From the IMG/VR virus record IMGVR_UViG_3300043773_000315: a stretch of DNA of 64,000 nucleotides; one strand, 5' to 3'. Below the pieces are notes generated by a model. It saw nothing but the letters and a program-made list of their open reading frames with translations, was not told the DNA's origin and did not search any database. A program made the translations under genes and the position numbers. Source of the DNA: an uncultured virus (IMG/VR IMGVR_UViG_3300043773_000315) (taxonomy: Duplodnaviria > Heunggongvirae > Uroviricota > Caudoviricetes). This document shows, one piece after another, positions 17,725 through 31,044 of this stretch. Position 1 is the stretch's first letter, and every line of letters starts with the position of its first letter.

Positions 17725-17798
17725 TGGTGCCCCCACAGGGAATCGAACCCCAAACCGCGGATTACAAAGCCGCTGTTATACCATTTAACTATAAGGGC
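17725..17798 (-). tRNA. tRNA-Thr(UGU)
   Basis: Cloverleaf; loop TT-TGT-AA; GGTTCGATTCC; encoded CCA. Confidence 0.9.
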
Positions 17799-17837
17799 TA
17801 ATATCATATATATAGTCGTGTGTGAAAAGGATTTAAA

Positions 17838-18401
17838 ATGCCCACATTAGAACAATTTGAAACAAATTGCGTGTCAATAGAAAAATTACAAAAGATTTAC
17901 TCCTTTACAGTTATGGTTGAAACAGGATGCTACATTGGAGAATCTTTAGAACATGCTTCATCTTATGATTTTATACTGGAAATATATTCTTGTGATATAA
18001 ATGAAGATTTCGTTGATGCGTGTAAGAAAAAATTTCAAAGCAAATCACATATAAAAATATTCAACGAAGATTCACATTCTTTTCTTCATAGACTATTGCC
18101 TTCACTAGATCATCATGATAGCATTTTTTTCTGGCTAGACGCACACTATTGGAAATCTTATATTCCTGAGTATAATAATATAGACTATCCTCTTGTGAAA
18201 GAACTAAACATCATTGATCAGTATAGAAAAGATAAAAATGATGTTATTGTCATTGACGATGTTTATACTTATATTAAAAAATCAGAAAATTTTAAACATA
18301 CACACAATATTCCAAAAACAGGCACTGAGTTTTTAAAGAAGTTTAACTATAGCATTACAAACTTTGATTCTGATTCTGGCTATCTTTTACTTACAAGATA
18401 A
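17838..18401 (+). CDS. Putative SAM-dependent methyltransferase
   Basis: VETGCYIGES, FWLDAH, IVIDD; AT-rich; opposite strand to neighbours. Confidence 0.65.
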   Translation: MPTLEQFETNCVSIEKLQKIYSFTVMVETGCYIGESLEHASSYDFILEIYSCDINEDFVDACKKKFQSKSHIKIFNEDSHSFLHRLLPSLDHHDSIFFWLDAHYWKSYIPEYNNIDYPLVKELNIIDQYRKDKNDVIVIDDVYTYIKKSENFKHTHNIPKTGTEFLKKFNYSITNFDSDSGYLLLTR

Positions 18402-18408
18402 TTTATAT

Positions 18409-18990
18409 CTAAACTTTTTTAGACCTCTTTACATTATAAAGCTTTTCGTGTATCGATGAATAATCTCTCGGCATATATAAAACATTCAACAAGCATCTTG
18501 TTGTTCCTATCGAACTACCCACAACGTGCCAGTGATTTGGTTTATTAGCAAATAGAAAAGCTGTATTTTTCTTCCACTCAACTTTTTTGACAAAATTTTT
18601 ATTATCGTCGTATAATTCAGTGCCTGATCCTGTGTCAGATATAGGAATTAAACATGATAGTTGTTTATCGAAACTATCAGTGTGTAAGTACATGCCATGT
18701 TTCTCGTAGTCGGTGCAATTGTTATAAGAGACATATTGTAATACGACACGACTTTCAATCATAGTTAGTTTTGGAATTTCTAGTTTATCACAAAATATAG
18801 AGTACAGATCAAAAAGATAACTATGAAAGTTTTTGTTGTTGCCTTCATAATTAATCAGCGATCTATGATTTTGTGTTTTTAAGTCTAGAATTTTATTTGC
18901 GGTATCTTCCGCTTCTTTAAACATATCATCGGGCAAAAAATTAGGAATACTATAATGTAACCAGGGATCAGTATATCTTTGAAATTCCAT
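18409..18990 (-). CDS. 2OG-Fe(II) oxygenase-like protein
   Basis: HTD...GTELY...HWH...R; start moved to MEFQ because the longer ORF runs through tRNA-Leu. Confidence 0.7.
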   Translation of the reverse strand: MEFQRYTDPWLHYSIPNFLPDDMFKEAEDTANKILDLKTQNHRSLINYEGNNKNFHSYLFDLYSIFCDKLEIPKLTMIESRVVLQYVSYNNCTDYEKHGMYLHTDSFDKQLSCLIPISDTGSGTELYDDNKNFVKKVEWKKNTAFLFANKPNHWHVVGSSIGTTRCLLNVLYMPRDYSSIHEKLYNVKRSKKV

Positions 18991-19007
18991 TATACTACCT
19001 ATAAAAT

Positions 19008-19089
19008 TGGTGCGGATAGAGGGACTTGAACCCCCACGCCGAAGCACTAGTTCCTAAGACTAGCGTGTCTGCCATTTCACCATATCCGC
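19008..19089 (-). tRNA. tRNA-Leu(UAG)
   Basis: CTAGT-CTTAGGA-ACTAG anticodon arm; long variable arm; CCA. Confidence 0.92.
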
Positions 19090-19090
19090 G

Positions 19091-19162
19091 TAGCCGATGA
19101 GAGGGTCGAACTCCCGACATTCTGCGTGTAAAGCAGCTACTCTACCACTGAGTTAATCGGCT
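19091..19162 (-). tRNA. tRNA-Val(UAC), CCA not encoded
   Basis: AGCCGAT/ATCGGCT acceptor; loop TT-TAC-AC. Confidence 0.85.
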
Positions 19163-19209
19163 ATGAAGACTAGCCCGTACACCTTAGTGCAGAGGAGCTA
19201 GCCATATTT

Positions 19210-19383
19210 TTACATTCCTGATGTAAGAGCAGTAATGGAGTCGTGAACCCACAACCACCAAGCTGCTGCGGCTGCAACGATAGCAGCAGCACCCTTCTTT
19301 ACATCCCAGCCGTTCTGCCATAGATTCCAAAGAACCCAAAGAACTGCCGCAACTAAAACTAAAACTACGATTGTGTTTAGCAT
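19210..19383 (-). CDS. Small two-helix membrane protein (57 aa)
   Basis: MLNTIVVLVLVAAVLWVLWNLWQNGWDVKKGAAAIVAAAAAWWLWVHDSITALTSGM; GAGG RBS; CTAAATA upstream; not in the ORF track. Confidence 0.7.
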   Translation of the reverse strand: MLNTIVVLVLVAAVLWVLWNLWQNGWDVKKGAAAIVAAAAAWWLWVHDSITALTSGM

Positions 19384-19429
19384 GTTATTACCTCATTAGG
19401 CCGTGATTGGCCTATCATTATTTAGAAAA

Positions 19430-19504
19430 TGGAGCGGGCAATGGGGATCGAACCCATGACCTTCTGCTTGGCAAGCAGACGCACTACCCCTGTGCTATAC
19501 CCGC
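19430..19504 (-). tRNA. tRNA-Gly(GCC)
   Basis: TCTGC-TTGCCAA-GCAGA; ends TCCA. Confidence 0.92.
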
Positions 19505-19507
19505 GAT

Positions 19508-19583
19508 TGGTGCGTCTTCCAAGTTTCGAACTGGGTTGTTCGGCTTATGAGACCGATGAGATTGCCAACACCTCCCAAGACGC
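19508..19583 (-). tRNA. tRNA-Met(CAU)
   Basis: TCGGT-CTCATAA-GCCGA; CCA; Met versus Ile2 identity not certain. Confidence 0.82.
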
Positions 19584-19700
19584 TTATAATGATTTACTGA
19601 GCAACCTAATCTCATCAATAGCCTTAGACTTCTCTTCTTTGTCTCTAGAGCCTACAAGAAGATATAGTATGAGACATGCTATGTGTTTTTCGGTTGTCAT
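19584..19700 (-). CDS. Small hypothetical protein (38 aa)
   Basis: MTTEKHIACLILYLLVGSRDKEEKSKAIDEIRLLSKSL; fills the spacer between two tRNAs; GAGAG RBS. Confidence 0.45.
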   Translation of the reverse strand: MTTEKHIACLILYLLVGSRDKEEKSKAIDEIRLLSKSL

Positions 19701-19714
19701 TATCACTCTCTAAA

Positions 19715-19790
19715 TGGTGCTGCCTCTCTGAATCGAACAGAGTCCCCACGCTCTTCAGGCGTATGTACGCACCAGCTATACCAAGGCAGC
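19715..19790 (-). tRNA. tRNA-Phe(GAA)
   Basis: TACGC-CTGAAGA-GCGTG; CCA. Confidence 0.88.
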
Positions 19791-20465
19791 CAGAATTTTT
19801 CTTGTTTCTTCCCAATTTTTTACATTATACACTACATCGGCCACTTTTGCAAGAGGATAATCGTTTCCACCTTTCTCGCACTTGTCGCCAAAGAATACCA
19901 GTTTATTCTCTATCCAATCTTTAACTTGCGACTTATCTTTTCCTTTTGGATAGATATCAAGTCCAGTCTCGCCAGCAATAGTGCAATCCAGTTCAGGAAA
20001 TAGTTTTCTGATACGTTCTGCAATTTGCACTCGTTCATTTGTTGCATTGTCCCATTCGACATACAATGCTCTTTGTGCTTTGTCTGCATTACGACCAACG
20101 ACTGAGAAATTGACCATTCCTGTTCTCATCTCAGAATGTTTGCCAGTACGAATGTTAAAGCCACTCTTGCGCTTTTCATATTCCAAAGTCATGAACAAGA
20201 TACCGCCCGCTTTCCAAGTGGACTGATATCTAACTTTGTCTTTTGAACGAACTTCGTTGCCACAGCAATTGAATATAAACGAACACGAATCAATAACTTC
20301 TTGACCTACTTGTTCTAATGTTTTTGGATAATCTGAGCCTGTAACAAGACACACATCATGCTTGTTCGCAAACTCAACAAACTCTTTGCGAAATTGTTCT
20401 TCCATTACTGAACGACTAGGAGTCAGTGTACCATCAACATCAAAACAGTAAGTAGTCTTTTCCAT
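19776..20465 (-). CDS. HAD-IIB phosphomannomutase (eukaryotic PMM-like)
   Basis: FDVDGTLTPSR, VTGSD, R.GMVNFS.VGRNA, DIYPKGKDK, FFGDKCEKGGNDY. Confidence 0.88.
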   Translation of the reverse strand: MEKTTYCFDVDGTLTPSRSVMEEQFRKEFVEFANKHDVCLVTGSDYPKTLEQVGQEVIDSCSFIFNCCGNEVRSKDKVRYQSTWKAGGILFMTLEYEKRKSGFNIRTGKHSEMRTGMVNFSVVGRNADKAQRALYVEWDNATNERVQIAERIRKLFPELDCTIAGETGLDIYPKGKDKSQVKDWIENKLVFFGDKCEKGGNDYPLAKVADVVYNVKNWEETRKILAALV

Positions 20466-20466
20466 T

Positions 20467-20613
20467 TCAACCTTTCAACAATTGAGGCGCCGATTCGTTC
20501 AATTGCTTATTTTCGTATTCTTTCTTCTTAGCATCATATTGTTCATTTGTCAAGTTATGCCAACCGCAACACTTGCCATCTGGACTACGTCCACAACCAC
20601 AGTCTTTACTCAT
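20467..20613 (-). CDS. Small CDGSH-like metal/Fe-S binding protein (48 aa)
   Basis: MSKDCGCGRSPDGKCCGWHNLTNEQY...; AGGAG RBS; not in the ORF track. Confidence 0.7.
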   Translation of the reverse strand: MSKDCGCGRSPDGKCCGWHNLTNEQYDAKKKEYENKQLNESAPQLLKG

Positions 20614-20628
20614 TTGTTTCTCCTATAT

Positions 20629-20719
20629 TGGCGGACAGAGTGGGATTTGAACCCACGATACCTTATTAGGGTATGCCTCGTTAGCAGTGAGGTGCCTTCG
20701 ACCGCTCGGCCATCTGTCC
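20629..20719 (-). tRNA. tRNA-Ser(GCU)
   Basis: Loop CT-GCT-AA; long variable arm; GCCA end. Confidence 0.92.
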
Positions 20720-21135
20720 TAATTCTGTATAATAATCGTCGTGTTTTCCTTACCGTACTCGCTGACAATTCTATATAGCCACTTTGCATTCTGCGGGTGC
20801 AGACGGATGCAGCCGTGAGATGCTGGTCTACCAAGACGCTTTAAATCTTCCGTCGCATGTATTGCATATCCGTCAAGAAAGAAGATAGAATTTGGCATCG
20901 GCGCATTATCATACTTACGAGAATAGTGCATCTTGACCATATGATACGGCTGAAACACACCGCGAGGAGTATTGTATCCCTTTCGCCCAGTAGAAACATT
21001 CCACTCATAATAGTCCGTTGGTGTTTCTACTAACATGATTTGATCCGAGACATCAACCGTGATGATTACATCTTCGGCCTTAGCAACTCCAGTCATTGCA
21101 ACCAGAGCCGCCATCATAACGAAAAACTTCTTCAT
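20719..21135 (-). CDS. L,D-transpeptidase (YkuD/ErfK family) with signal peptide
   Basis: VSTGRKGYNTP, APMP.SIFF, YAIHAT, LGRPASHGCIRL. Confidence 0.9.
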   Translation of the reverse strand: MKKFFVMMAALVAMTGVAKAEDVIITVDVSDQIMLVETPTDYYEWNVSTGRKGYNTPRGVFQPYHMVKMHYSRKYDNAPMPNSIFFLDGYAIHATEDLKRLGRPASHGCIRLHPQNAKWLYRIVSEYGKENTTIIIQN

Positions 21136-21632
21136 GCTACCTTATCTTCCTTAGGCAAATGTTGAATTGCGTCCTTGTAACGGTCAGCGCAGTAAGATGC
21201 TGCCCATGCGTTTGGCTTTACAAGCGGAATCACATTACACATTCCACGAATATAACCTACAGCTTCATTTATAACACAAGATGAGCCGTGTTTCAAGTCA
21301 GGATTTATGTCTAAGTGAATTTCAACTCCACGTTCACCAATTGCTTCCTCTAAGTCAAGATACAACTGTGCCGTCTTCATTACCTCATTCATGAGACGCA
21401 TACGTGGCTTGTCCTTCTGCTGGTCATAGTCACGTTCACGAACAACAGAACCAAATACGCGACAACCATTCTTTCCATTCTTATGCACAACTACCACGTT
21501 GATGTAGTCGGCATACCAAATTCCATCTATCTGGAAACGTTCTGAGTCGCCACCAAGATATATCTTTGTTTCTGGAGTTTGTGCTTGAATGAATGCGCGG
21601 ACTTCTTCCATGTTCATGTTTTTGCGTATCAT
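21132..21632 (-). CDS. RNase H-like YkuK-family protein
   Basis: IYLGGDS, RLMNEV, EIHLDINP, KPNAWAAS.CAD. Confidence 0.8.
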   Translation of the reverse strand: MIRKNMNMEEVRAFIQAQTPETKIYLGGDSERFQIDGIWYADYINVVVVHKNGKNGCRVFGSVVRERDYDQQKDKPRMRLMNEVMKTAQLYLDLEEAIGERGVEIHLDINPDLKHGSSCVINEAVGYIRGMCNVIPLVKPNAWAASYCADRYKDAIQHLPKEDKVA

Positions 21633-22522
21633 TTTTGTTTTCCTAATTCTACCAAATCTTCTAGTACATTATAGAATGATTTGAGATGTTTTACAAGTTC
21701 TATTTTTTCTAGACTATCTGCATATATGGAATGCAAATTATCTTCATGCCACCACATTTCAAATTTTTCTATCGCAAAAAAATCTAGATTTTTTTGCCAA
21801 ATTATATGATATATGCATTCCTCATCATGAACTTCTTTTAACAGTTCAATGACAACTTTTGCGATATTGTCAAATATAAAATGAAATTTTTGAACTGTAG
21901 TTTTCTTTCCACCTAATATTCCAGCAATTGCGTGATAATTAATGGTATCAAGTCTTTGATCTATAATATTTCTTCTGTAAAACACAGGATAAGTATTATT
22001 AATAGCAAACATTAAAAATCTGTCTTCCGTTTTCTTTTTCATACCTTCAATTAGTTCATTACAGAATAAATCTGAATTATAATATTCAGATGTGCTATTG
22101 TCTGCAAATATCAGATGTTTATCTGGTATCAGTCCTGAGTATGAAATTCCAACATCAATCCAAAATACGTAATTGTAGTCTACAATTTCATTCATCCAGT
22201 AAGATTTTAGATATTGTATTTCTTGACATCTATCAGATGTTAACGCTTCCTCAAAGTTTTTATATTCATCAAACAAGTCTTTCATGTAGAAATTTTCTAA
22301 GTTGTAAGGAACAATAATAACTTTTGTTTTTGCTATAGGTTCAATAAATTCTCTTACATCAGATTCTTGTAAAGGATCACAGTAGATGTAGAAATCTGCA
22401 TTTGTAATTTTAAGAAGTGACGCAAGAGAGTGTAAATATTGATGATATCTGTGTTGTCTTCCGCCATAATTTGTGCCGTGAAGATTAGTATAGAAACATG
22501 TCACAATAGCTGTATCGTTCAT
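21629..22522 (-). CDS. HtrL/WlaTC-like glycosyltransferase
   Basis: IVT.FY, FWIDVG, GILGG, DEE; start moved to MNDT because the longer ORF runs through tRNA-Ser. Confidence 0.6.
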   Translation of the reverse strand: MNDTAIVTCFYTNLHGTNYGGRQHRYHQYLHSLASLLKITNADFYIYCDPLQESDVREFIEPIAKTKVIIVPYNLENFYMKDLFDEYKNFEEALTSDRCQEIQYLKSYWMNEIVDYNYVFWIDVGISYSGLIPDKHLIFADNSTSEYYNSDLFCNELIEGMKKKTEDRFLMFAINNTYPVFYRRNIIDQRLDTINYHAIAGILGGKKTTVQKFHFIFDNIAKVVIELLKEVHDEECIYHIIWQKNLDFFAIEKFEMWWHEDNLHSIYADSLEKIELVKHLKSFYNVLEDLVELGKQK

Positions 22523-22536
22523 TATTACTCTCAATA

Positions 22537-22624
22537 TGGCGGATAGAGTAGGATTCGAACCCACGAAACATTGCTGTTCTCCAGTTTTCAAGACTGGCGC
22601 CTTCAACCACTCGGCCATCTATCC
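22537..22624 (-). tRNA. tRNA-Ser(UGA)
   Basis: CCAGT-CTTGAAA-ACTGG; long variable arm. Confidence 0.93.
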
Positions 22625-22678
22625 AAAATTCGATGCGATTTCTTATAGTGGTTACGCCCTCCACTTTTAGTATATAGT

Positions 22679-22755
22679 TGGCGCACTCGGATGGACTCAA
22701 ACCACCAACCTCCGGTTTCGTAGACCGGCATTCTATTCAGTTGAACTACGAGTGC
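22679..22755 (-). tRNA. tRNA-Arg(ACG)
   Basis: CCGGT-CTACGAA-ACCGG; CCA. Confidence 0.92.
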
Positions 22756-23268
22756 TTATCTGAGCCAATTAATTATTTTGAAATGGAATGCAATGGTCAC
22801 TCTTAACTTAAAGCATTCTCTTGAAGGAGCTTTTCCATAATGTAGCACGTTTGAAGGGAAAAAAATACCTTTATTGTGTTTTGGAATTATAGTTATAATT
22901 TTTTTGTTTATATTAAATAGAGTTTCTCCGCCCCAATCAGATTTCCAATCTTCATTAACATAATATACAAAAGTATATTGATCCGAATCGAGACTGTCAG
23001 TGTGCCAACATCCATCTAAACCATATGTTTGTCCGTTAGCAAAAACTCTTCTAAGATCACACTGCACTCCTATTTTAAATTGAATTTTTTCAAACAGATT
23101 CGTTGTGAAAAAAGAATCGTCTCTAAGTTGAATAAACCAAAATCTACTTTTACTTTCTGGAGTAGCCGAATGTCCAAATTTCCACGAAGATTTGTCTATT
23201 TTCTTGACAATTTTTAATCTGTCATCATCATCAAACACATTATCAAATTCTTCGACTGTGTTTCTCAT
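22756..23268 (-). CDS. 2OG-Fe(II) oxygenase (prolyl-hydroxylase-like)
   Basis: ANGQTYG.DG.WHTD, WGGET, LH, RVTIAF. Confidence 0.8.
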   Translation of the reverse strand: MRNTVEEFDNVFDDDDRLKIVKKIDKSSWKFGHSATPESKSRFWFIQLRDDSFFTTNLFEKIQFKIGVQCDLRRVFANGQTYGLDGCWHTDSLDSDQYTFVYYVNEDWKSDWGGETLFNINKKIITIIPKHNKGIFFPSNVLHYGKAPSRECFKLRVTIAFHFKIINWLR

Positions 23269-23283
23269 CTTACGCCTTTTGTT

Positions 23284-23359
23284 TGGAGGAGACGGCCAGA
23301 TTCGAACTGGCACCTCAAGGATTTGCAGTCCCGTACATTAACCGTTTTGCTACGTCTCC
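23284..23359 (-). tRNA. tRNA-Cys(GCA)
   Basis: Loop CT-GCA-AA; U73 discriminator; CCA. Confidence 0.9.
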
Positions 23360-23778
23360 GGATTTATTTTAAAATGTTCAACAGCAATTCTTCTTCTTAA
23401 CTCTGATGAACTGAAACTGTGTTCGCGCTTATTAAAATGATATTTCATCTTTGATATTTTATAACCTGTGAATGCTTTACCTCTATACTCTTCACCAAGT
23501 ATACGTATATTTATAGGAAGCATGTTTAGGATATCAAGCAATTCTGCTTCTGTAGAATACACAATAATCTCATCAACAAACTTGCAGGCTCTTACTTGTA
23601 ATTGCCTTTCAATCAAACTTTGAACTGGTTTGTTTTTCTCTGGTCTATCAATTGTAGGATCCACTTGTAGTCCAACAATTAACCAATCACATTGCTGCTT
23701 TGCTTCTTCTAACATTGCAACATGACCAGCATGAAACAAATCAAACGTAGAACATGTAAATCCAATAATCTTGTTCAT
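23350..23778 (-). CDS. Glycerol-3-phosphate cytidylyltransferase-like (TagD family)
   Basis: STFDLFHAGH, LIVGLQVDP, R.HSFSSSELR; AGGAG RBS before MNKI. Confidence 0.85.
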   Translation of the reverse strand: MNKIIGFTCSTFDLFHAGHVAMLEEAKQQCDWLIVGLQVDPTIDRPEKNKPVQSLIERQLQVRACKFVDEIIVYSTEAELLDILNMLPINIRILGEEYRGKAFTGYKISKMKYHFNKREHSFSSSELRRRIAVEHFKINPET

Positions 23779-23794
23779 AATGTTTTCTCCTAAT

Positions 23795-23868
23795 TGGCTG
23801 CCCTTCGTGGATTCGAACCACAATTGCTGGAGTCAGAGGCCAGAGTCCTGCCGTTAGACGAAAGGGCA
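23795..23868 (-). tRNA. tRNA-Gln(CUG)
   Basis: Loop CT-CTG-AC; U1-A72; GCCA. Confidence 0.9.
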
Positions 23869-23869
23869 A

Positions 23870-23943
23870 TGGTACTGCATAGTGGAATCGAACCACTGTA
23901 ATCGGCTCCACAAACCGATGTTCTACCATTGAACTAATGCAGC
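23870..23943 (-). tRNA. tRNA-His(GUG), G-1-less type
   Basis: TCGGT-TTGTGGA-GCCGA; G1.U72, A73, T at position -1. Confidence 0.9.
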
Positions 23944-23952
23944 ACTTGTAAT

Positions 23953-24699
23953 CTACATATGACAGAAAAATAATTTTTCATCTTCTGTGAGTAAAGACCA
24001 AAATATATTGTTTAAGTGTTTACGAAAAAACATTATGTTTTGGTATAGGTCTTCCGAAAAATGAAAGTCTGCGTATCTTGCTGCTATACCTATTTCTAGA
24101 CCTTCGGCGATTTGTGGAACTTTATTGTTTTGTAGTTTCCAATAAAGTTCTTCCCATTTATCAATGAAATATTTAAGTTTAAATGTATTGCGAAATACTA
24201 TAAAACCTTCTTGAAATGTAAATATGGAATCGTTCTTATCAAATTCCAACACATCATATTTCTCATCGTAAGCTTCTCTGTGTCCAGAAGAAAATAGCGG
24301 CGTTACTATATCAAATCTTTCTCTTTTACACTCTTCTAAGAAATTCTGAATTTTCAGTTCTTCATATGAATCATTAAATACGAAGTCACTATCAATGTAT
24401 ATTATGTATTCCGATGTAGATTTTTGAAACGCATTTTTTAGTGCTAAAAATTTTAGATTATAGTTGAAGTGAGAAGTCGATTGAATTTCTTCATTCTCGT
24501 AAAATATAGGATATTTTTCAGGTATCTTATATGTGTATAAATTTTTTATGTTTGGCACAATATCATTTGTTGTTAAATAAACTTTTGCGTTGTTGTGTTT
24601 ATTTTTATCTTCAACAAAACTTGCCGCTAACTCGGAATAAGGAGATTTAAATCGCCAATTGTATCCAGCAGATAGCATTGTATAATCATATGTAATCAT
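23953..24699 (-). CDS. Putative glycosyltransferase-like protein
   Basis: FNYNLK, IIYIDSD (DxD), EGLEIG; very AT-rich. Confidence 0.55.
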   Translation of the reverse strand: MITYDYTMLSAGYNWRFKSPYSELAASFVEDKNKHNNAKVYLTTNDIVPNIKNLYTYKIPEKYPIFYENEEIQSTSHFNYNLKFLALKNAFQKSTSEYIIYIDSDFVFNDSYEELKIQNFLEECKRERFDIVTPLFSSGHREAYDEKYDVLEFDKNDSIFTFQEGFIVFRNTFKLKYFIDKWEELYWKLQNNKVPQIAEGLEIGIAARYADFHFSEDLYQNIMFFRKHLNNIFWSLLTEDEKLFFCHM

Positions 24700-24721
24700 A
24701 ATATGTCCTATACTTTAGAAA

Positions 24722-24798
24722 TGGTTGCGGGAGTGGGATTCGAACCGCACGATCTTCGACTTATGAGGCCGATGAGATGACCGCTTCTCTATCCCGCA
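24722..24798 (-). tRNA. tRNA-Met(CAU), initiator-like scaffold
   Basis: TGCGGGATAGAG...CCCGCAACCA; loop CT-CAT-AA; lacks the three consecutive G-C anticodon-stem pairs of fMet. Confidence 0.82.
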
Positions 24799-24801
24799 AT
24801 G

Positions 24802-25320
24802 TCAATGTTGTATTGTTTTAAAATTAACGGCGATAACCGTTTTTCTACCTTTCGATTTGTTGAAACTTGATCTATGTTCTAGTAGAGATGGAAATAAAAT
24901 GAAATCGCCTTCTTTTACGTTTGCTGTGTAAGTTTCTTCACTATTAAGAGGATTTCTAAATTCAGTAGCCGGAGAATCCTCTGGCAATTCAAGATAATAC
25001 ACTAAATTCCAATCTGATCCTGAATGTCTATGCCATTCATGATGATCATTGGTTTCATATTGTTGAAACCAATAACGACCCATTTCAAATCGATCATAAT
25101 GCATATTTTTAAAATATCTTTTCAAGATTGGATTGAAATACATCATTAGCGTTTCGATGTATTCGCTATTATGATTAGGATATTGCCAATCGCTCTTTGT
25201 AACTTTTTCACCATCAAGTAGAGTGTTACATCCAACAGACTCTTCTATCATCTGTAGAAAATCTTTTTTAAGATGATTGTGTTTATGAAACGACTCAATT
25301 ATTAATGGTATTTGGAACAC
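24802..25320 (-). CDS. Putative 2OG-Fe(II) oxygenase / cupin
   Basis: WFQQY...H.WH.H, VYYLELP, EGDFILFPS.LEH; GTG start with GGAGAG RBS. Confidence 0.7.
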   Translation of the reverse strand: MFQIPLIIESFHKHNHLKKDFLQMIEESVGCNTLLDGEKVTKSDWQYPNHNSEYIETLMMYFNPILKRYFKNMHYDRFEMGRYWFQQYETNDHHEWHRHSGSDWNLVYYLELPEDSPATEFRNPLNSEETYTANVKEGDFILFPSLLEHRSSFNKSKGRKTVIAVNFKTIQH

Positions 25321-25363
25321 TATAAACTCTCCGCTGTCGATTGTAAGTATATATGTCGCAAAT

Positions 25364-25438
25364 TGGTAGAGCATACGGGAGTCGAACCCGTCTCTCATCC
25401 TTGAAAGGGATGTGACCTAACCGATAGTCGAATGCTCC
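25364..25438 (-). tRNA. tRNA-Glu(UUC)
   Basis: CATCC-CTTTCAA-GGATG; CCA. Confidence 0.9.
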
Positions 25439-25447
25439 ATTAATAGT

Positions 25448-25527
25448 TTGTCAATCGTATAGGATTTGCACCTATGTTTCATCCGACTCCGCAGATGTTT
25501 CCTAACTTCTAGAAGAACGATTAACAA
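25448..25527 (-). ncRNA. tRNA-like element, copy 1
   Basis: Cloverleaf-like, non-canonical anticodon loop, no CCA; 68-nt core identical to 26783-26850. Confidence 0.65.
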
Positions 25528-25529
25528 TA

Positions 25530-25604
25530 TGGAGAACCCTCTGGGATTCGAACCCAGGACAGACGGATTAAAAGCCCGCTACTCTACCACTGAGTTAAGG
25601 GTTC
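25530..25604 (-). tRNA. tRNA-Lys(UUU)
   Basis: GCGGG-CTTTTAA-TCCGT; CCA. Confidence 0.92.
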
Positions 25605-25607
25605 AAT

Positions 25608-25681
25608 TGGCTGGGAGACTAGGATTCGAACCTAGATAGTTGGAATCAAAATCCAACGTCCTGCCGTTAGACGATCTCCCA
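25608..25681 (-). tRNA. tRNA-Gln(UUG)
   Basis: TTGGA-TTTTGAT-TCCAA; GCCA. Confidence 0.92.
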
Positions 25682-25715
25682 ATAATTGGTGCCTAGTCCG
25701 GAACTAGGACTTAAA

Positions 25716-25789
25716 TGGTTGGCCAGTAGAGAATCGAACTCTCATCGGACGCCTATCAAGCGCCTGCTTTACCATTAAGCTACAAGCCA
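25716..25789 (-). tRNA. tRNA-Ile(GAU)
   Basis: GGCGC-TTGATAG-GCGTC; some stem mismatches; CCA. Confidence 0.82.
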
Positions 25790-25795
25790 TTGAAT

Positions 25796-25957
25796 TGCAC
25801 CGCATCATGATATCCTCATGTCTCCTGGTCAAGCGGGTGACCTCCCCTCAGACTTGCGACTAACACCGCTCAAAGTGTTAGTTAGAGGGCGTGGTGGAAA
25901 ACAAAAACTCCATGTTGAGTACATTTCAGCGTTTTTGTTAACGGTACCACGGCGCAC
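25796..25957 (-). ncRNA. Putative structured ncRNA (multi-stem, possible kissing loop)
   Basis: Stems AACAAAAAC/GTTTTTGTT, CGTGGT/ACCACG, CCCTC/GAGGG, ACTAACAC/GTGTTAGT, GGTCA/TGACC. Confidence 0.55.
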
Positions 25958-25959
25958 TT

Positions 25960-26045
25960 TGGTGGGTGAGGTAGGATTCGAACCTACTAAGTACTAGACA
26001 GGGGATTTACAGTCCGCCGCAACTCGCCATCGTTGCCGCTCACCC
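25960..26045 (-). tRNA. tRNA-Tyr(GUA)
   Basis: Loop CT-GTA-AA; long variable arm; CCA. Confidence 0.9.
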
Positions 26046-26052
26046 GAAACTT

Positions 26053-26159
26053 GTTGAGCCTCACGCTGCTTGGCTCAACTCATCTGTAACTTCTCGACTC
26101 ATTCGCAGTAGCGTAGCTCCGCACTCAAACGTACGGCACCCTGCGCGATGGTGACAGAT
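26053..26159 (-). ncRNA. Putative structured ncRNA (pseudoknot)
   Basis: ATCTGTCAC/GTTACAGAT, CGCAG/CTGCG, CCGTAC/GTGCGG, GTTGAGCC/GGCTCAAC; loop AGCGT complementary to ACGCT. Confidence 0.55.
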
Positions 26160-26165
26160 TGAATA

Positions 26166-26240
26166 TGGTGGACCCTAAGAGAATCGAACTCTTACCCTCG
26201 CCGTGCAAAGGCGATGTGCTCCCATTATCACTAAGGGCCC
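26166..26240 (-). tRNA. tRNA-Ala(UGC)
   Basis: TCGCC-TTTGCAC-GGCGA; G3.U70. Confidence 0.93.
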
Positions 26241-26245
26241 TATTA

Positions 26246-26366
26246 ATAGCTCCTGTCACTATCGCAGTCAGGCAAACGGTTACTTATTTAACGGTCTCTC
26301 TTTAATCGGCCGAAGAGAGAAAATCATTCAGTAACACCCTAGTTTATTTCAACCGTAAAGGGCATG
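26246..26366 (-). ncRNA. Putative structured ncRNA
   Basis: GCCCT/AGGGT, GTTACT/AGTAAC, TCTCTCTT/AAGAGAGA, CCTG/CAGG stems. Confidence 0.45.
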
Positions 26367-26376
26367 TTTCTTGAAT

Positions 26377-26450
26377 TGGCACCAGTGCAAGGATTCGAAC
26401 CCTGACAAACGGTTTTGGAGACCGCTGTGCTACCGTTACACCACACTGAT
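26377..26450 (-). tRNA. tRNA-Trp(CCA)
   Basis: GCGGT-CTCCAAA-ACCGT; GCCA. Confidence 0.92.
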
Positions 26451-26452
26451 AT

Positions 26453-26680
26453 TGGCGACCCATTCCCCGACTTTTCGTATGCTGGACTTTCACTCTATTA
26501 CTTGCCATAGAGATTAACCAGTTCTGTGCCACATTTCATTGGCTGCTACTACTAGCGGATCAAGACAGGTCATAATTACGAATGAGGAAAGAAGCAGCAT
26601 CAAAACTACGCCTACTGTTTCTTTTACACCAAATACTGGGCACTTTTGGGTGTGCTACATCGCAGTATTCGATAACCTCA
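26453..26680 (-). ncRNA. Putative structured ncRNA(s); 3' domain ends in CCA
   Basis: TGAGG/CCTCA domain with ATCGAATACTG/CAGTATTTGGT; second domain TGACC/GGTCG-CCA enclosing three hairpins. Confidence 0.55.
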
Positions 26681-26684
26681 ATAT

Positions 26685-26761
26685 TGGTCGGAGTACTAGG
26701 ATTCGAACCCAGGACCCTCTGCTCCCAAAGCAGATGCGCTACCAGACTGCGCTACACTCCG
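26685..26761 (-). tRNA. tRNA-Pro(UGG)
   Basis: CGGAGTGTAGCGCAG start; TCTGC-TTTGGGA-GCAGA. Confidence 0.94.
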
Positions 26762-26778
26762 TTATAATTTATATAGTA

Positions 26779-26854
26779 TGTTATCGTATAGGATTTGCAC
26801 CTATGTTTCATCCGACTCCGCAGATGTTTCCTAACTTCTAGAAGAACGATAACA
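26779..26854 (-). ncRNA. tRNA-like element, copy 2
   Basis: 68-nt core identical to 25454-25521; different but still paired terminal stem. Confidence 0.65.
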
Positions 26855-26858
26855 ATCT

Positions 26859-26932
26859 TGGCGACCTATGCGAGACTCAAACTCGCTACACCTCTTAGAC
26901 AGAGAGGTATGATATCCATTCACTAATAGGCC
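26859..26932 (-). tRNA. tRNA-Asp(GUC)
   Basis: CCTCT-CTGTCTA-AGAGG; GCCA. Confidence 0.87.
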
Positions 26933-26941
26933 ATGTTAGGA

Positions 26942-27020
26942 TAGTGAGTGCTAACGGCGTATCTAAATCACACATGACGCATCAACGCCGTATTGCCTGT
27001 ATGATTGAAGTCACTCACTA
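26942..27020 (-). ncRNA. Putative compact pseudoknotted ncRNA
   Basis: TAGTGAGTG/CACTCACTA, ACGGCGT/ACGCCGT; AATCATACA complementary to loop TGTGTGATT. Confidence 0.6.
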
Positions 27021-27022
27021 AT

Positions 27023-27097
27023 TGGTGTGCCAGGTGAGAATTGAACTCACGACATTCGGTTTAAGAGACCGCTACTCTACCACTGAGTTACTGGCGC
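27023..27097 (-). tRNA. tRNA-Lys(CUU)
   Basis: Loop CT-CTT-AA; CCA. Confidence 0.9.
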
Positions 27098-27102
27098 AAA
27101 TT

Positions 27103-27305
27103 TGGAGTGGGCTAACGACAACATTCTGGATGTTCCCGCTTGTCTTATCGGCGTATCCCCACTCAATACGCTGGAGTCAGTCTTTACTAACACGTAGCTA
27201 CACGACTGACAGCGTTCTACGAATAGGCTTCACGGCGAAGATCGGTCACAGTATGCATCCTGCCGACTCGTTACTTTAATCGCGCAAACTCTAACGAACC
27301 GTGAA
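27103..27305 (-). ncRNA. Putative structured ncRNA ending in CCA with a possible 3' pseudoknot
   Basis: TTCACGG/CCGTGAA domain; TCAGTC/GACTGA; GCGTATT/GATACGC hairpin whose loop GAGTGGG matches the 3' CCCACTC(CA). Confidence 0.55.
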
Positions 27306-27306
27306 T

Positions 27307-27382
27307 TGGCTGGATAGCTTGGATTCGAACCAAGGACATCCTCGTTAACAGCGAGGCGCTCTACCGCTGGAGCTACTATCCA
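27307..27382 (-). tRNA. tRNA-Asn(GUU)
   Basis: CCTCG-CTGTTAA-CGAGG; GCCA. Confidence 0.93.
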
Positions 27383-27385
27383 ATA

Positions 27386-27513
27386 TTCTATACTTTCAGA
27401 TATGCACCGACGGTTTCGAAGCCGTCCACCTTGAACGCCCCATACGGAGCGCGGCTGTGACCTACACATGAGCGGTAGCTACAACGCCCTGGTGCATATC
27501 TGAAAATATAGAA
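27386..27513 (-). ncRNA. Long-stem ncRNA with a T-arm-like hairpin
   Basis: 23-bp terminal inverted repeat (27386-27408 / 27491-27513) with one G.U on the minus strand; GACGG-CTTCGAAA-CCGTC next to the stem. Confidence 0.65.
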
Positions 27514-27514
27514 C

Positions 27515-27674
27515 TCTCTTTTCGTCAGCGGTTGAAGTAGATGATGAGATTTTGCAACTCATACTGGATCTCCGATTCGTTCGTCAGAGGAACTACTAAG
27601 AATCACCGTTCTACTATTAAACTACATCTACTGATTCATCTTGGCCGAGACTATCAACCACTGACGAAAAGAGA
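27515..27674 (-). ncRNA. Long-stem multibranch ncRNA
   Basis: 21-bp terminal inverted repeat (27515-27535 / 27654-27674), inner AGTAGATG/CATCTACT, three apical hairpins. Confidence 0.65.
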
Positions 27675-27831
27675 ATTATGTGAGGCTACGCCGAATCGTA
27701 GTAATCTCACCGGTGTTTCGTCATTCGGTACGCTCAGTTTTAAAAAACTAAGAAAAAGGAACTTAACAATGTAAATCAGCGGTGCTGCTTATCCTGCAGC
27801 TAGGAAACTCTTTCAATCAACTTACAAACAC

Positions 27832-27860
27832 AATATAGCAGTTCAGAACCAGGAAGTCAA
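27832..27860 (-). promoter_or_regulatory. Sigma70-type promoter for the tRNA/ncRNA operon
   Basis: TTGACT-17nt-TATATT with an A-rich UP-like tract. Confidence 0.8.
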
Positions 27861-27902
27861 CTTTTATTTTTGCATAACTGCTATGTTCTGGACGCATAAC
27901 TC

Positions 27903-27940
27903 AAAAAGAAGAACCCCGAAACTTTTGGCTTCGGGGTTCT
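27903..27940 (-). terminator. Intrinsic terminator (attenuator)
   Basis: AGAACCCCGAAGC-CAAAA-GTTTCGGGGTTCT followed by TCTTTTT. Confidence 0.9.
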
Positions 27941-27965
27941 AAGAAACTAAGTCTATCCGTAAGAC

Positions 27966-28049
27966 TTAAAGCATAGAACCCCTCGCGTCTGCCCATGCTG
28001 GGCGACCTTCAAATTGATTATTCGTAATTGGGCAATAATGCGATTTCAT
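27966..28049 (-). CDS. Putative leader peptide (27 aa, contains 19 of 20 amino acids)
   Basis: MKSHYCPITNNQFEGRPAWADARGSML; purine-rich AGAAAGAACGGAA before ATG; 3' end carries GGGGTTCTA complementary to the terminator 5' arm. Confidence 0.78.
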   Translation of the reverse strand: MKSHYCPITNNQFEGRPAWADARGSML

Positions 28050-28074
28050 TTCCGTTCTTTCTAACTTTGTATTC

Positions 28075-28105
28075 TATTTATATCACAAGGAAGTCAATTT
28101 GTCAA
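28075..28105 (-). promoter_or_regulatory. Overlapping T4-type late promoter (TATAAATA) and sigma70 promoter
   Basis: TTGACA(28105-28100)-17nt-TATAAA; TATAAATA at 28082-28075. Confidence 0.8.
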
Positions 28106-28106
28106 G

Positions 28107-28733
28107 TTATTCTCTAACTTTTCTAATTCTTTTTTCGTCGCCTAGATTTGCTCTTCCATCGTATGCCAAATCTGCGTTTGGACCATTTGCATCAACGTAG
28201 TGCAAAAATACTTGTGCTTGCCATCTGCCTGTATATTTTTCTCTCCAGTGCCAGAGATCCATTCCTCTGTAAAGAACAGCACCGCCCACTTCGATTATCT
28301 GTCTATGAACATCTGTGTGTTTATCAGTTTTAGAAAAAAAGAAAGGCCAGATAGATGACTTTTTATCGTGACCTAAAGTTATTGTGGCTGATATTTCGCA
28401 ACTAGGGCGATCTTTGTGTATATTTAAAACTTCATTTTTATTGTAGAGTCTGGCATACGTATACGTTGGAAGTAGCGATATATTGATAAGAGATGATATC
28501 TTTGATCGATTTAGATCAAGAAACTTATCTAAAAGGGATTCTCCATATATACTACCTGAAAGAGTACACTGTTTATCTGGTTTTAATCTTCCTTCATTTT
28601 TCAAGGAAAGAAGATGATTCGTGAGCATTTCACACTCATACTTGTCCACAAGATTAGGAACATATGCCCAGCCATGTTTTGCAAAATGCTGCTCTACATT
28701 TAGACAGGATTCTCTTTTATCTAAATTTTCCAT
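28107..28733 (-). CDS. 2OG-Fe(II) oxygenase
   Basis: PTYTYARLY, HKDRPSCEIS.T, HWRE, QVFLHYVD; TATAAATA at 28752-28759 upstream. Confidence 0.8.
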   Translation of the reverse strand: MENLDKRESCLNVEQHFAKHGWAYVPNLVDKYECEMLTNHLLSLKNEGRLKPDKQCTLSGSIYGESLLDKFLDLNRSKISSLINISLLPTYTYARLYNKNEVLNIHKDRPSCEISATITLGHDKKSSIWPFFFSKTDKHTDVHRQIIEVGGAVLYRGMDLWHWREKYTGRWQAQVFLHYVDANGPNADLAYDGRANLGDEKRIRKVRE

Positions 28734-28790
28734 TTTACACTCTTTTATTTTTATTTATAATGGAGTGTATAACTCTAACCTTAATTAAGA

Positions 28791-29438
28791 TCATTCTTTT
28801 GATAAGATTCTATCTGTTGCTTTTTTCCAGGCTTCTTCATTGTCTAAAATGTAAGCTATCGAAATTCTTTTCGATTTTGTCTCTGCGGCATGCCAAAAAA
28901 GTTTGTTTTCGTCTTCTATGGAAGGAAAATAACCTACTTTTATATTCCAACCAGGATTATCTTGAATCGTTGTTATGGATTTTGTTTCTCTGTCCCAATA
29001 TTTGAAATTGCCACTTCCGTCAACACTATACGTAAATAGTGCATTGTAACCGGGAGCATTTCCATTATGGTGCCATCCAATGTATCCATTTTCAGGATAT
29101 ATGATAGATAGAGAATTTTTTGTTGAACTTATAATCTTTCCAAGACTTAGTAATTTGGTTTCAATCATTACTAATTCTCGTAGATTGAAATAGGCCATAT
29201 CTTTTATTGAAATGCCCAAAACTGCGCGGGGATGACAAAATTGTAATACGTCAAGTTTATGTGCTTCAAATAGATATTTGTCTGAACATGGATGATATGA
29301 AGTGATAAGACTATCTTCTAATCTTTTCATTTCCCAATCATCAACAAGTTTTGAAACATTATCACTCAAATAGTATCTTTCTATTTGAGACAATATACTT
29401 TTTATTTTTTCATTCTCTACATTGATGACTTTCATCAT
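28791..29438 (-). CDS. Hypothetical cupin/2OG-fold phage protein
   Basis: YPENGYIGWHHNGNAPGYN, G.G.F.Y.D, WHAA...R. Confidence 0.65.
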   Translation of the reverse strand: MMKVINVENEKIKSILSQIERYYLSDNVSKLVDDWEMKRLEDSLITSYHPCSDKYLFEAHKLDVLQFCHPRAVLGISIKDMAYFNLRELVMIETKLLSLGKIISSTKNSLSIIYPENGYIGWHHNGNAPGYNALFTYSVDGSGNFKYWDRETKSITTIQDNPGWNIKVGYFPSIEDENKLFWHAAETKSKRISIAYILDNEEAWKKATDRILSKE

Positions 29439-29463
29439 GATAATTGTTATCCATATTATTTTT

Positions 29464-29545
29464 TGGTGCGAGTGGAGGGACTTGAACCCCCATGCTTTCG
29501 CGGTTGATTTTGAGTCAACTGTGTCTACCGTTTCACCACACTCGC
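29464..29545 (-). tRNA. tRNA-Leu(CAA)
   Basis: GTTGA-CTCAAAA-TCAAC; variable arm; CCA. Confidence 0.93.
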
Positions 29546-29637
29546 TGGTCGGCGTGCTTGGATTCGAACCAAGTCAAGAACACTCATCTAGTGCTAAAGG
29601 GATTATAAGGCCCTCCCGTGTACCAACACCCACGCCG
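29546..29637 (-). tRNA. Atypical tRNA with UAU anticodon and long variable arm
   Basis: CGGCGTG/CACGCCG-ACCA; loop CT-TAT-AA; 4-nt D loop; AGCACT/AGTGTT variable stem. Confidence 0.75.
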
Positions 29638-29838
29638 TTAAATCTTCTTGATACCGTTTACATAATTCTCTGCGGCATCTTCATGATACAGAAGATTATG
29701 TTCTTCATACGATTCAGTAGCAACGATTAAACCATTTTTACCAAACTCAACTTCAAACTTATCTTGAGACGCATTATAATATACAATGGCCTTCAAGTCA
29801 AAGTCTTCTGAATGAAATACTGATACTTGGCTTCTCAT
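29638..29838 (-). CDS. Hypothetical protein
   Basis: 66 aa; GAGG RBS; EDAAENYVNG motif common in T4-like phages. Confidence 0.7.
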   Translation of the reverse strand: MRSQVSVFHSEDFDLKAIVYYNASQDKFEVEFGKNGLIVATESYEEHNLLYHEDAAENYVNGIKKI

Positions 29839-29854
29839 GCTATCCTCTTTGTTT

Positions 29855-29930
29855 TGGTGCGCCCGCTCAGATTCGAACTGAGGATCGGACGGTTATGAGC
29901 CGTCAGCATTAACCGCTATGCTACAGGCGC
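29855..29930 (-). tRNA. tRNA(CAU), probably Ile2 (lysidine type)
   Basis: GACGG-CTCATAA-CCGTC; C4-G69 and C5-G68 pairs. Confidence 0.85.
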
Positions 29931-29934
29931 GAGT

Positions 29935-30010
29935 TGGTGCCCCTTGTCAGATTCGAACTGACCCTTGAAGGATTTTAAGTCCTCTGCCTCTACCGCTGGG
30001 CTAAAGGGGC
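29935..30010 (-). tRNA. tRNA-Leu(UAA) with short variable loop
   Basis: GAGGA-CTTAAAA-TCCTT; 76 nt in total. Confidence 0.88.
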
Positions 30011-30016
30011 TTTATC

Positions 30017-30283
30017 TTAGTCCTTGCTTGACCCGTGAATGAAACCCTTGCGAGGATCACCCCAATATGTATCTGCGCGGACACGAACGAACCGTGCGCG
30101 AGTATCGGCCGTGTTCTCATTTGGAACAGACAACCAAGGATTCTTGCCAGCCAACCACGCCTTCTGCTTCATTGTCCACTTTACAATAGCAGACCGATCA
30201 CGCTTGATGGCCTTAGAAATCTGTCGATTTGCTTCACGCTCACCCTTTGAGGTGTAAGTAGATTTAGTCTTTGGTGCGGACAT
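30017..30283 (-). CDS. Hypothetical basic protein
   Basis: GGAG RBS; AWLAGKNPWLSVPN motif. Confidence 0.7.
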   Translation of the reverse strand: MSAPKTKSTYTSKGEREANRQISKAIKRDRSAIVKWTMKQKAWLAGKNPWLSVPNENTADTRARFVRVRADTYWGDPRKGFIHGSSKD

Positions 30284-30307
30284 TCACTTTCTCCATTATA
30301 CTTTAAT

Positions 30308-30384
30308 TGGCGACTCCGGAGGGACTTGAACCCCCAGCATTCAGATTAGAAGTCTGACACTCTATCCAGTTGAGTTACGGAGCC
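30308..30384 (-). tRNA. tRNA-Arg(UCU)
   Basis: TCAGA-CTTCTAA-TCTGA; GCCA. Confidence 0.93.
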
Positions 30385-30396
30385 ATTGAACTTTAT

Positions 30397-30585
30397 TTAT
30401 GCTACCTGATCAACAGGAAAGCCTCTGATGTAACAGCCATCAAGAAAACGATGACCAGTCTTGTGTGCATCATCGCTGTCCAGGAAAAACTGTTCCCAGA
30501 TGCAATCATCTTCTTCAAAGCAATATAGCATGAAGCCGACGCGGTTGTCAACTACAGAAAAATCTACTTCATATGACCTAACCAT
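30397..30585 (-). CDS. Hypothetical protein
   Basis: Coupled small ORF with RBS. Confidence 0.6.
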   Translation of the reverse strand: MVRSYEVDFSVVDNRVGFMLYCFEEDDCIWEQFFLDSDDAHKTGHRFLDGCYIRGFPVDQVA

Positions 30586-30808
30586 TGTCTATATCCTTCT
30601 TAATTTTGGGCATAACCATAGTTAGTGCTTGTGCAAGAGTGTAAGCCATTTCACGAGGAATGGATACAGATTCTCTGTTATCAGCAAAGTTATAAACAAT
30701 GGTGATAGGATCATTCATAAAGTTATTACGAGTGTAAACTTCGATCCATTGTTTGGATCTACGATCACCGTAAAACTTATGTTTCGTTTCAATAGTATCA
30801 TCAAACAT
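30578..30808 (-). CDS. Hypothetical protein
   Basis: Coupled small ORF (TAATG). Confidence 0.6.
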   Translation of the reverse strand: MFDDTIETKHKFYGDRRSKQWIEVYTRNNFMNDPITIVYNFADNRESVSIPREMAYTLAQALTMVMPKIKKDIDNG

Positions 30809-31044
30809 TATGCTGCACCTTTGCGAAGCTTAACACCAGTAACTCGTTCCAATGCGATGATAGAAACGGGATACTGAGGATTGCCAGTGTATAAACGAAA
30901 AGTATTTTTTGGATCGTATCGCTCACTTTTCACTACCCTTCCACTCTTGATGAGAATGTCATGCCGACAACCGTACTTATATTCAGTACGGACATGCAGC
31001 AGATCGCCAACGTTCGGTTTCCAATCATTTGTCATCATGGTCAA
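30808..31044 (-). CDS. Hypothetical protein
   Basis: Coupled small ORF. Confidence 0.6.
   Translation of the reverse strand: MTMMTNDWKPNVGDLLHVRTEYKYGCRHDILIKSGRVVKSERYDPKNTFRLYTGNPQYPVSIIALERVTGVKLRKGAA

Follow-up and report, generated by a model that had tools for sequence, protein, structure and literature searches.

A candidate ribosome-mediated transcription attenuator among the tRNA genes of an uncultured T4-like phage lineage

In trpL and the other enteric amino-acid attenuators, a short leader open reading frame (ORF) is combined with RNA segments that pair as 1:2, 2:3 or 3:4, the 3:4 hairpin being the terminator; a ribosome that has reached the stop codon masks the antiterminator strand, and a hairpin stands in or next to the ORF. 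Ribosome-mediated attenuation in general is described in PMC1183508. An element of comparable predicted layout occupies positions 27,903 to 28,105 on the minus strand of the DNA analysed here, a stretch of 64,000 nucleotides from an uncultured virus of the Caudoviricetes (IMG/VR record IMGVR_UViG_3300043773_000315) that we refer to as the window. We read this element as a ribosome-mediated, trp-type transcription attenuator within the transfer RNA (tRNA) region of an uncultured T4-like phage lineage, and judge that reading to have an even chance of being right. The element differs from trpL in several respects: regulatory codons do not occur in a run, the leader peptide is conserved in its own sequence, the genes downstream are phage tRNA and other RNA genes rather than genes for biosynthetic enzymes, a promoter follows the terminator, and the antiterminator covers only the lower 8-9 base pairs (bp) of the 13-bp terminator stem. 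In concept, the closest counterparts would be upstream open reading frames (uORFs) that report general translation stress, such as toiL, described in PMC12121999 as a multipurpose uORF of the Escherichia coli topAI-yjhQ transcript that acts via the topAI ribosome-binding site and Rho-dependent termination. Both the phage leader and toiL are short ORFs in which ribosomes stalling at various positions would remodel the downstream RNA, so that many stresses rather than one amino acid are reported; the likeness drawn here is one of layout, and the output of the phage element, unlike that of toiL, would be an intrinsic terminator. A third point of comparison is provided by the PeSLs, repeated intergenic composite terminator/promoter motifs that are common in T4-type phages (PMC2839356, PMC4122927). 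The phage element shares with them a stable stem-loop with G/C tracts, an AT-rich stretch, a sigma-70-like promoter and a position at which neighbouring genes differ between relatives, and its terminator (27940-27903) is indeed followed by a sigma-70-like promoter, P2 (27860-27832). In contrast to a PeSL, its stem sequence occurs once only in the window and covaries with an upstream ORF. Repetition of the PeSL type was not seen either: the three copies of GGGGTTCT in the 64 kb (0.62 expected) all lie within the element, and the element with its leader is present in a single copy in each of five virus records, one of which, of 167 kb, is estimated to be complete. The sequence TTGACTTCCT has three exact copies and, with one mismatch allowed, nine against 6.6 expected.

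The comparison rests on relatives gathered in several ways. An exact-match scan with the terminator returned five viral contigs, and further scans were made so that relatives would not be picked by the feature under test: one with a 15-mer of the downstream RNA region followed by a BLAST filter, one with a pattern running from the ORF end to the stop-codon hairpin (28 viral loci), and one with a pattern from which both GGGGTTCT and the terminator were absent. The last gave 45 metagenome loci, of which roughly half were dropped as chance matches that had no ORF. Alignment A4 holds 25 distinct sequences from uncultured phage contigs, with duplicates and one truncated row (L159) left out, and alignment A3 holds 14 rows; counts out of 25 below refer to A4. 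DNA searches of 50,697 phage records (1.5 kb in near mode, 728 nucleotides in distant mode) returned only a 53-nucleotide tRNA-Asn match, so that the region has no other DNA in common with a cultured phage among them. In bacterial and archaeal genomes the family pattern was matched five times, in no case with the ORF or the terminator. Rfam 15, which includes the T-box and the amino-acid leaders, gave only tRNAs and chance matches over 17000-31000, with nothing at E up to 1 between 27383 and 28110.

The pattern of change in these sequences argues that the leader is read by ribosomes. The frame, 26-28 codons long, is open in all 25 homologues, both other frames contain stops in all 25, and at least six insertion or deletion events fall within the ORF, every one of 3 nucleotides; events of 1-2 nucleotides are seen in the 5' leader and in the loops of the hairpin and of the terminator. 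On this evidence the leader ORF is almost certainly translated, and the short ORF at the centre of a preliminary description of the locus, made from the window's sequence, is conserved among its relatives. An overlapping 31-residue ORF (27901-27996) was rejected, its frame being broken in relatives by loop events of 1-2 nucleotides. Seven residues of the leader peptide (M1, N11, Q12, P17, W20, A21 and G26) are invariant and four more (H4, Y5, P7 and T9) nearly so. The third positions of the AAT, CAA, CCA (at P17), GGT and TCA codons never vary, and at codon 6, where six different residues are encoded, the last base is C in 22 of 23 sequences, so that selection must also act at the level of the RNA.

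The pairings that define the element are conserved as well. The promoter, ORF, complementarity, hairpins and terminator are all found on the minus strand where the preliminary description had placed them. Segment 2 in the last codons of the ORF (GGGGTTCTA, 27982-27974) is the exact complement of segment 3 (TAGAACCCC, 27941-27933), and the two enclose a stop-codon hairpin (TAAGTCT at 27968-27962 with AGACTTA at 27954-27948) that all 25 homologues keep, with an almost invariant stem and a loop that varies in sequence and length. Segment 2 pairs with segment 3 in every homologue, the duplexes of 17 haplotypes ranging from -9.1 to -15.0 kcal/mol, and cognate pairs outperform permuted ones (6 of 20,000 permutations were as good, a figure inflated by relatedness). 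Compensatory changes are seen in two of the nine 2:3 pairs. At A4 columns 144:179 the pair is A-U in 18 sequences and G-C in seven and is never unpaired; at 137:189 it is G-C in 24 and A-U in one, L154, in which a G>A change in segment 2 is joined by C>T in segment 3 and G>A in the 3' arm of the terminator. The segment-2 codon concerned is GGA (Gly) in L154, GGG in 12 homologues and AGG (Arg) in 12, including the nearest relatives. On a tree of the 25 sequences the G-C group requires one or two changes, which with the L154 event makes two or three independent compensatory events in total. The covariation between the 3' end of the ORF and the terminator that the preliminary description proposed to look for is thus present. 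For the structure as a whole, none of 500 shuffles reached the observed covariation score, and sliding the partners cut pairing from 93% to 20-51%.

The other helices are supported to different degrees. The terminator (13 pairs at 27940-27910, seven of them G-C, followed by TCTTTTT) is real; it is kept in all homologues, with covariation in its upper stem, and folds at -20.0 to -23.1 kcal/mol in the 11 of them that were folded. The hairpin inside the ORF (GCCCA at 28003-27999 with TGGGC at 27995-27991), already noticed in the preliminary description, also covaries: the pair 107:127 is C-G in ten sequences, U-A in ten and U-G in four, with two inner pairs unpaired in ten of the 25. In transcripts ending at the stop codon, folding of 20 of the 25 homologues pairs the G-run of segment 2 chiefly with segment 1 (1:2), which is consistent with segment 1 being the fourth segment of a trp-like layout. 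The fold of the element is far more stable than the folds of its shuffles (z = -4.9). In the nascent transcript, ending before the 3' arm of the terminator, 2:3 forms around the stop-codon hairpin in all eight of the homologues listed, bearing out one of the two states proposed in the preliminary description. Local energies computed for the window are -37.7 kcal/mol for the antiterminator with the terminator top, -38.9 for the terminator and -46.7 for the terminator with 1:2, which suggests that the availability of segment 1 decides the balance between the states. With segment 1 free, termination should be strongly favoured; with it masked, the states should be nearly equal in energy and termination partial.

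Taken together, these observations suggest the following mechanism, in which we infer what the ribosome does, and which way the response goes, by analogy with ribosome-mediated attenuation (PMC1183508). Transcripts would begin at the upstream promoter P1, which combines sigma-70-like elements with the late-type octamer TATAAATA, or arrive from the upstream tRNA genes, and would carry the leader ORF. Segment 2, in the last ORF codons (GGGGUUCUA), could pair either with segment 1, the C-run at codons 6-7, or with segment 3 (UAGAACCCC), which doubles as the lower 5' arm of the terminator hairpin. On a leader without a ribosome, 1:2 and 3:4 would form and transcription would stop. A ribosome at the stop codon should, given the usual ribosome footprint, mask segment 2, whose spacing to the TAA is kept in A4, and 3:4 would again form and end transcription. 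A ribosome slow or stalled within about codons 2-18 would cover segment 1 or keep it from segment 2; 2:3 would then compete with the terminator, and part of the polymerases would read on past P2 into the structured RNAs, tRNA-Asn and the tRNA genes that follow. The late-type octamer is present in P1 and absent from P2, and one may speculate that read-through matters most late in infection. Contigs from RNA libraries of two studies span the terminator (27714-28052 and 27874-28025). They hint only weakly at transcription of the region and at read-through, since such contigs cannot show transcript starts, ends or levels and such libraries may contain DNA. The missing RNA coverage at, for example, 28088-28500 is meaningless because the relatives lack the genes that the window has at that place.

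As to the signal, the leader has no run of any codon, and for this reason we favour general elongation speed, that is, aminoacyl-tRNA supply, which claims about half of whatever confidence the attenuator itself commands. Like the preliminary description, we infer from the design that any hungry codon might trigger read-through. In its specific form, as a sensor of general decoding capacity in which slowing at almost any of some 15 codons in positions 2-18 would free the antiterminator, the proposal is tentative and, taken as a whole, rather unlikely. Slowing might come from host anticodon nucleases cleaving tRNAs or from a loss of charged tRNA, and polymerases that started at the late-type promoter would then continue into the phage tRNA genes. 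The composition of the peptide, which first suggested this idea, is unusual in the window: 19 of the 20 amino acids are represented (Val is missing), 17 of them within the first 19 codons, exactly as first described. Nineteen different residues in 27 are reached by 11 of 14,726 windows of that length in the window's long ORFs (7.5e-4), and no other of the 83 six-frame ORFs of 25-29 residues reaches that number, so the rarity check called for at the outset came out in favour of the idea. The further expectation that diversity is kept despite sequence divergence was not supported as such. One relative has all 20 amino acids within 26 residues; across the family, whose peptides have 26-28 codons, the number of different residues lies between 14 and 20 (the null mean is 13.9), with 11-15 within codons 2-18, and the residues are conserved one by one. 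The diversity is inherited by descent and amounts to one observation, not 25. Constraints on the RNA may also explain it, since an RNA in which G+C-rich stems alternate with A+U-rich linkers is bound to encode a peptide of varied composition.

A number of findings weigh against an attenuator. Two of the nine 2:3 pairs are unpaired in seven and five of the 25 sequences, and in one homologue (L135) a change in the terminator stem is compensated in its 3' arm and not in segment 2, leaving the duplex at -9.1 kcal/mol. The 1:2 pairing is not predicted in five of the 25 and, with 95% of cells paired, shows no compensatory change. At full length the terminator state is favoured in all 25, by 5.0-17.0 kcal/mol; with a computed barrier from antiterminator to terminator of only 3.6-4.6 kcal/mol in the window, the antiterminator could lower termination and not abolish it. 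Initiation signals are poor as well: the GGA of ACGGAA is just 1 nucleotide from the ATG, and a well-spaced Shine-Dalgarno-like core is found in four of the 25 homologues compared with 28 of the 54 long ORFs of the window. Two hallmarks of trp-type control are missing, namely clustered or tandem regulatory codons, of which there is Asn-Asn at most, and dependence of the downstream genes on read-through. The latter follows from the sigma-70-like promoter P2, which in the window lies 43 nucleotides past the U-tract of the terminator; a sigma-70-like promoter also comes after the terminator in all the homologues whose sequence was followed past that point, and in several relatives the first gene it drives is a 64-residue ORF and not the RNA genes. 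Finally, conservation of the peptide residue by residue, with synonymous variation at P7 (CCA, CCG, CCC), T9 and H4, suggests that the peptide itself may be functional.

Table 1. Features of the element and its immediate surroundings, in the order of the minus strand (coordinates are those of the window).
Feature	Coordinates	Strand	Basis
-35 hexamer TTGACA of upstream promoter P1	28100..28105	-	sequence
-10 hexamer TATAAA (28082-28077; TG one base upstream), overlapping TATAAATA, an octamer resembling T4-type late promoters	28075..28082	-	sequence
Leader ORF, 27 codons + TAA (MKSHYCPITNNQFEGRPAWADARGSML)	27966..28049	-	sequence
Segment 1 (GCATTATTGCCC; C-run at codons 6.3-7.2), candidate partner of segment 2	28030..28041	-	folding and alignment
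ORF-internal hairpin (GTCGCCCA-gca-TGGGCaGAC)	27987..28006	-	covariation in A4
Segment 2 (GGGGTTCTA), codons 23-26, ending 5 nucleotides before the stop codon	27974..27982	-	sequence, alignment
Hairpin TTAAGTCT/AGACTTAG, stop codon in 5' arm	27947..27969	-	96.5% of cells paired
Segment 3 (TAGAACCCC), pairing with segment 2 (antiterminator) or segment 4 (terminator)	27933..27941	-	folding, alignment
Intrinsic terminator: 13-bp stem, 5-nucleotide loop, U-tract	27903..27940	-	terminator scan
Repeat/palindrome GTTATGC-N8-CATAGC-AG-TTATGC between terminator and -35 of P2	27872..27900	-	kept in 13/14 A3 rows, not in L066
Downstream promoter P2, TTGACT-17-TATATT with TG	27832..27860	-	promoter scan

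The conservation of the peptide leads directly to the main competing explanation, which we regard as unlikely in itself and yet ahead of the other alternatives. Here P1, the ORF and the terminator would form a PeSL-like cassette carrying a stand-alone micropeptide gene, the terminator would be constitutive, and the peptide would act in trans, possibly on some factor of the host or the phage that is connected with tRNA or translation. Such a gene would account for a transcription unit that is complete in itself, from its promoter to its strong terminator, and for a peptide kept position by position while synonymous changes are tolerated at P7, T9 and H4. The terminator, AT-rich stretch and sigma-70-like promoter fit the published PeSL description (PMC2839356), and the upstream context varies as it would at a shuffling point. 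What a micropeptide gene leaves unexplained is that segment 2 tracks the 5' arm of the terminator, both in the triple change of L154 and in the pair that alternates between A-U and G-C, that a hairpin inside the ORF covaries, and that the third positions of AAT CAA, CCA, GGT and TCA never vary. The peptide also matches no family in Pfam-A or in PHROGs.

Those fixed codons can be turned to a different use. An attenuator with a specific input, responding to the invariant AAT-CAA (Asn-Gln, extended to Asn-Asn-Gln in the window), would work through the same helices, as a ribosome waiting there would still cover segment 1; this last argument depends on the ribosome footprint and is an estimate. N11 and Q12 never vary, their codons AAT and CAA are free even of synonymous changes in all 25 sequences, the first downstream tRNA gene is tRNA-Asn(GTT) in all 16 loci compared, and regulatory codons are expected to show a particular synonymous choice (PMC1183508). 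One or two Asn codons with one Gln is, however, far below what known amino-acid attenuators carry, and contact with RNA could explain the invariance equally well, and we consider a dedicated Asn-Gln input improbable.

Conservation at the level of residues, rather than codon runs, is typical of leader peptides that arrest the ribosome. In an alternative that we hold to be very improbable, the nascent peptide (HYCP...NQ...P-S-W-A...GG-S-M) would, within the exit tunnel and perhaps as a reaction to some ligand, keep the ribosome close to the stop codon and thereby set how long segment 2 is covered and hence whether transcription terminates. W20, A21 and G26, none of which varies, are found within 2-9 residues of the C-terminus, as such a sensor would have it, but most of the conserved residues overlap predicted RNA helices, which is a possible explanation of their conservation.

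The least probable of the alternatives, with a slim chance at best, is a small regulatory RNA of about 165 nucleotides running from P1 to the terminator, possibly of dual function, whose conserved single-stranded UAAUCAA would pair with a target and whose ORF would be secondary. A discrete unit from promoter to terminator, a fold more stable than its shuffles and the invariant nucleotides that no predicted helix explains are all as expected of such an RNA; the in-frame indels and the frame open in all 25 sequences argue instead for translation, and the RNA matches no Rfam family. A T-box or riboswitch was rejected, there being no Rfam match and segment 2 lying within a translated ORF.

To our knowledge, hardly anything is known of how phage tRNA genes are regulated, and our full-text literature searches found no leader-peptide attenuator tied to them. 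Phage tRNA genes are now regarded as a countermeasure to host defences by which tRNAs are cleaved or depleted (PMC10264068, PMC11555353 and PMC12409363). If the attenuator works as a switch, it would link the status of translation to the transcription of tRNA genes in a virus. It would also be an attenuator leader without a codon run and would thereby test how such sensors can be general; were the general sensor true, the phage would close a feedback loop by measuring tRNA supply and answering with tRNA production. The family is compact, at about 200 nucleotides, and comes with natural compensatory variants, which makes for easy cell-free testing.

The setting of the element in its genome places limits on what it could control. 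The virus record from which the window comes comprises 98,496 bases and is judged 59% complete, and the family B DNA polymerase in the window is about 51% identical to its counterparts in T4-like cyanophages. The window contains 30 tRNA genes. The 24 downstream of the element do cover all 20 amino acids, as the preliminary description had it, but they are spread over 9.6 kb with about ten ORFs between them, and on that strand a further five tRNA genes precede the element (29464-30384), so that the element is situated inside the tRNA region and not at its head. With these upstream genes, the promoter P2 after the terminator and the interspersed ORFs, the proposed control of a complete tRNA set is not supported. 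On the upstream side, the first tRNA gene is tRNA-Leu(CAA) in all 15 loci with a long enough flank. Among the upstream genes, ARAGORN reports a tRNA-Ile with anticodon tat at 29546-29637 (minus strand), unusually long at 92 nucleotides and with the anticodon at position 31; for this gene, which is also found in relatives, Rfam yields only a weak match of the tRNA-Sec type. Between tRNA-Leu(CAA) and the leader, two ORFs resembling 2OG-Fe(II) oxygenases (28107-28733 and 28791-29438, minus strand) are inserted in the window's lineage only; the first of them matches PHROG 2954 ('ferrochelatase') together with cyanophage and pelagiphage genes annotated as ferrochelatase or 2OG-Fe(II) oxygenase, and a copy of TATAAATA (28752-28759) lies 19 nucleotides upstream of its start.

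In P1 the TTGACA and TATAAA hexamers are separated by 17 nucleotides and TATAAATAG is nearly invariant in both alignments; relatives carry TTGACA, although in one clade it lies about 10 nucleotides further upstream and is paired with a different -10 (TAGGAT). The promoter scan omits P1 because its -10 hexamer has no T at position 6. The octamer TATAAATA is not enriched in the window, with three copies found and 3.4 expected. The repeat between the terminator and P2 is a palindrome at the level of the DNA (CATAGCnGCTATG in relatives) and is a possible operator of P2.

Beyond P2 several further features were observed. A 23-nucleotide motif, GCTGATTNACATTGTTAAGTTCCT (27766-27789, minus strand), is invariant in relatives whose flanks have diverged and is followed by a variable hairpin; in some relatives it comes after the 64-residue ORF instead of the P2 leader. 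This ORF (MLHFVGFKGDEY...) has a good ribosome-binding site and precedes the motif in L017 (1530-1724, minus strand), L031, L046, L058, L086 and L030; it is absent from the window. When ten mixed relatives were folded jointly, the RNA after P2 showed almost no consensus structure. A 160-nucleotide insertion (27514-27673, minus strand), edged by a 17-bp inverted repeat (CTCTTTTCGTCAG.GG / CC.CTGACGAAAAGAG), is found in the window and in L004 and is absent from L002 and L005; it holds a low-scoring tRNA-like sequence that ARAGORN, at relaxed settings, reads with anticodon tta ('tRNA-Stop') or as Leu(tag) with a 16-nucleotide intron. Directly upstream of tRNA-Asn lies a conserved structured RNA (27386-27513, minus strand) with a closing stem of about 23 bp and, after it, a tRNA-like core that has a canonical T-arm beside the 3' strand. 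Compensatory changes occur in 20 of its 43 predicted pairs across six relatives and its fold has z = -5.7; to be reported by ARAGORN, as a tRNA that contains an 'intron', it needs a relaxed threshold, and it has no Rfam match. Its long terminal stem and tRNA-like domain may resemble those of bacterial Y-RNA-like RNAs. Elsewhere in the window, at 4890-8369 on the minus strand, a protein of 1159 residues combines a cytidylyltransferase-like domain with a zeta-toxin/AAA_33 P-loop kinase domain and DUF6321.

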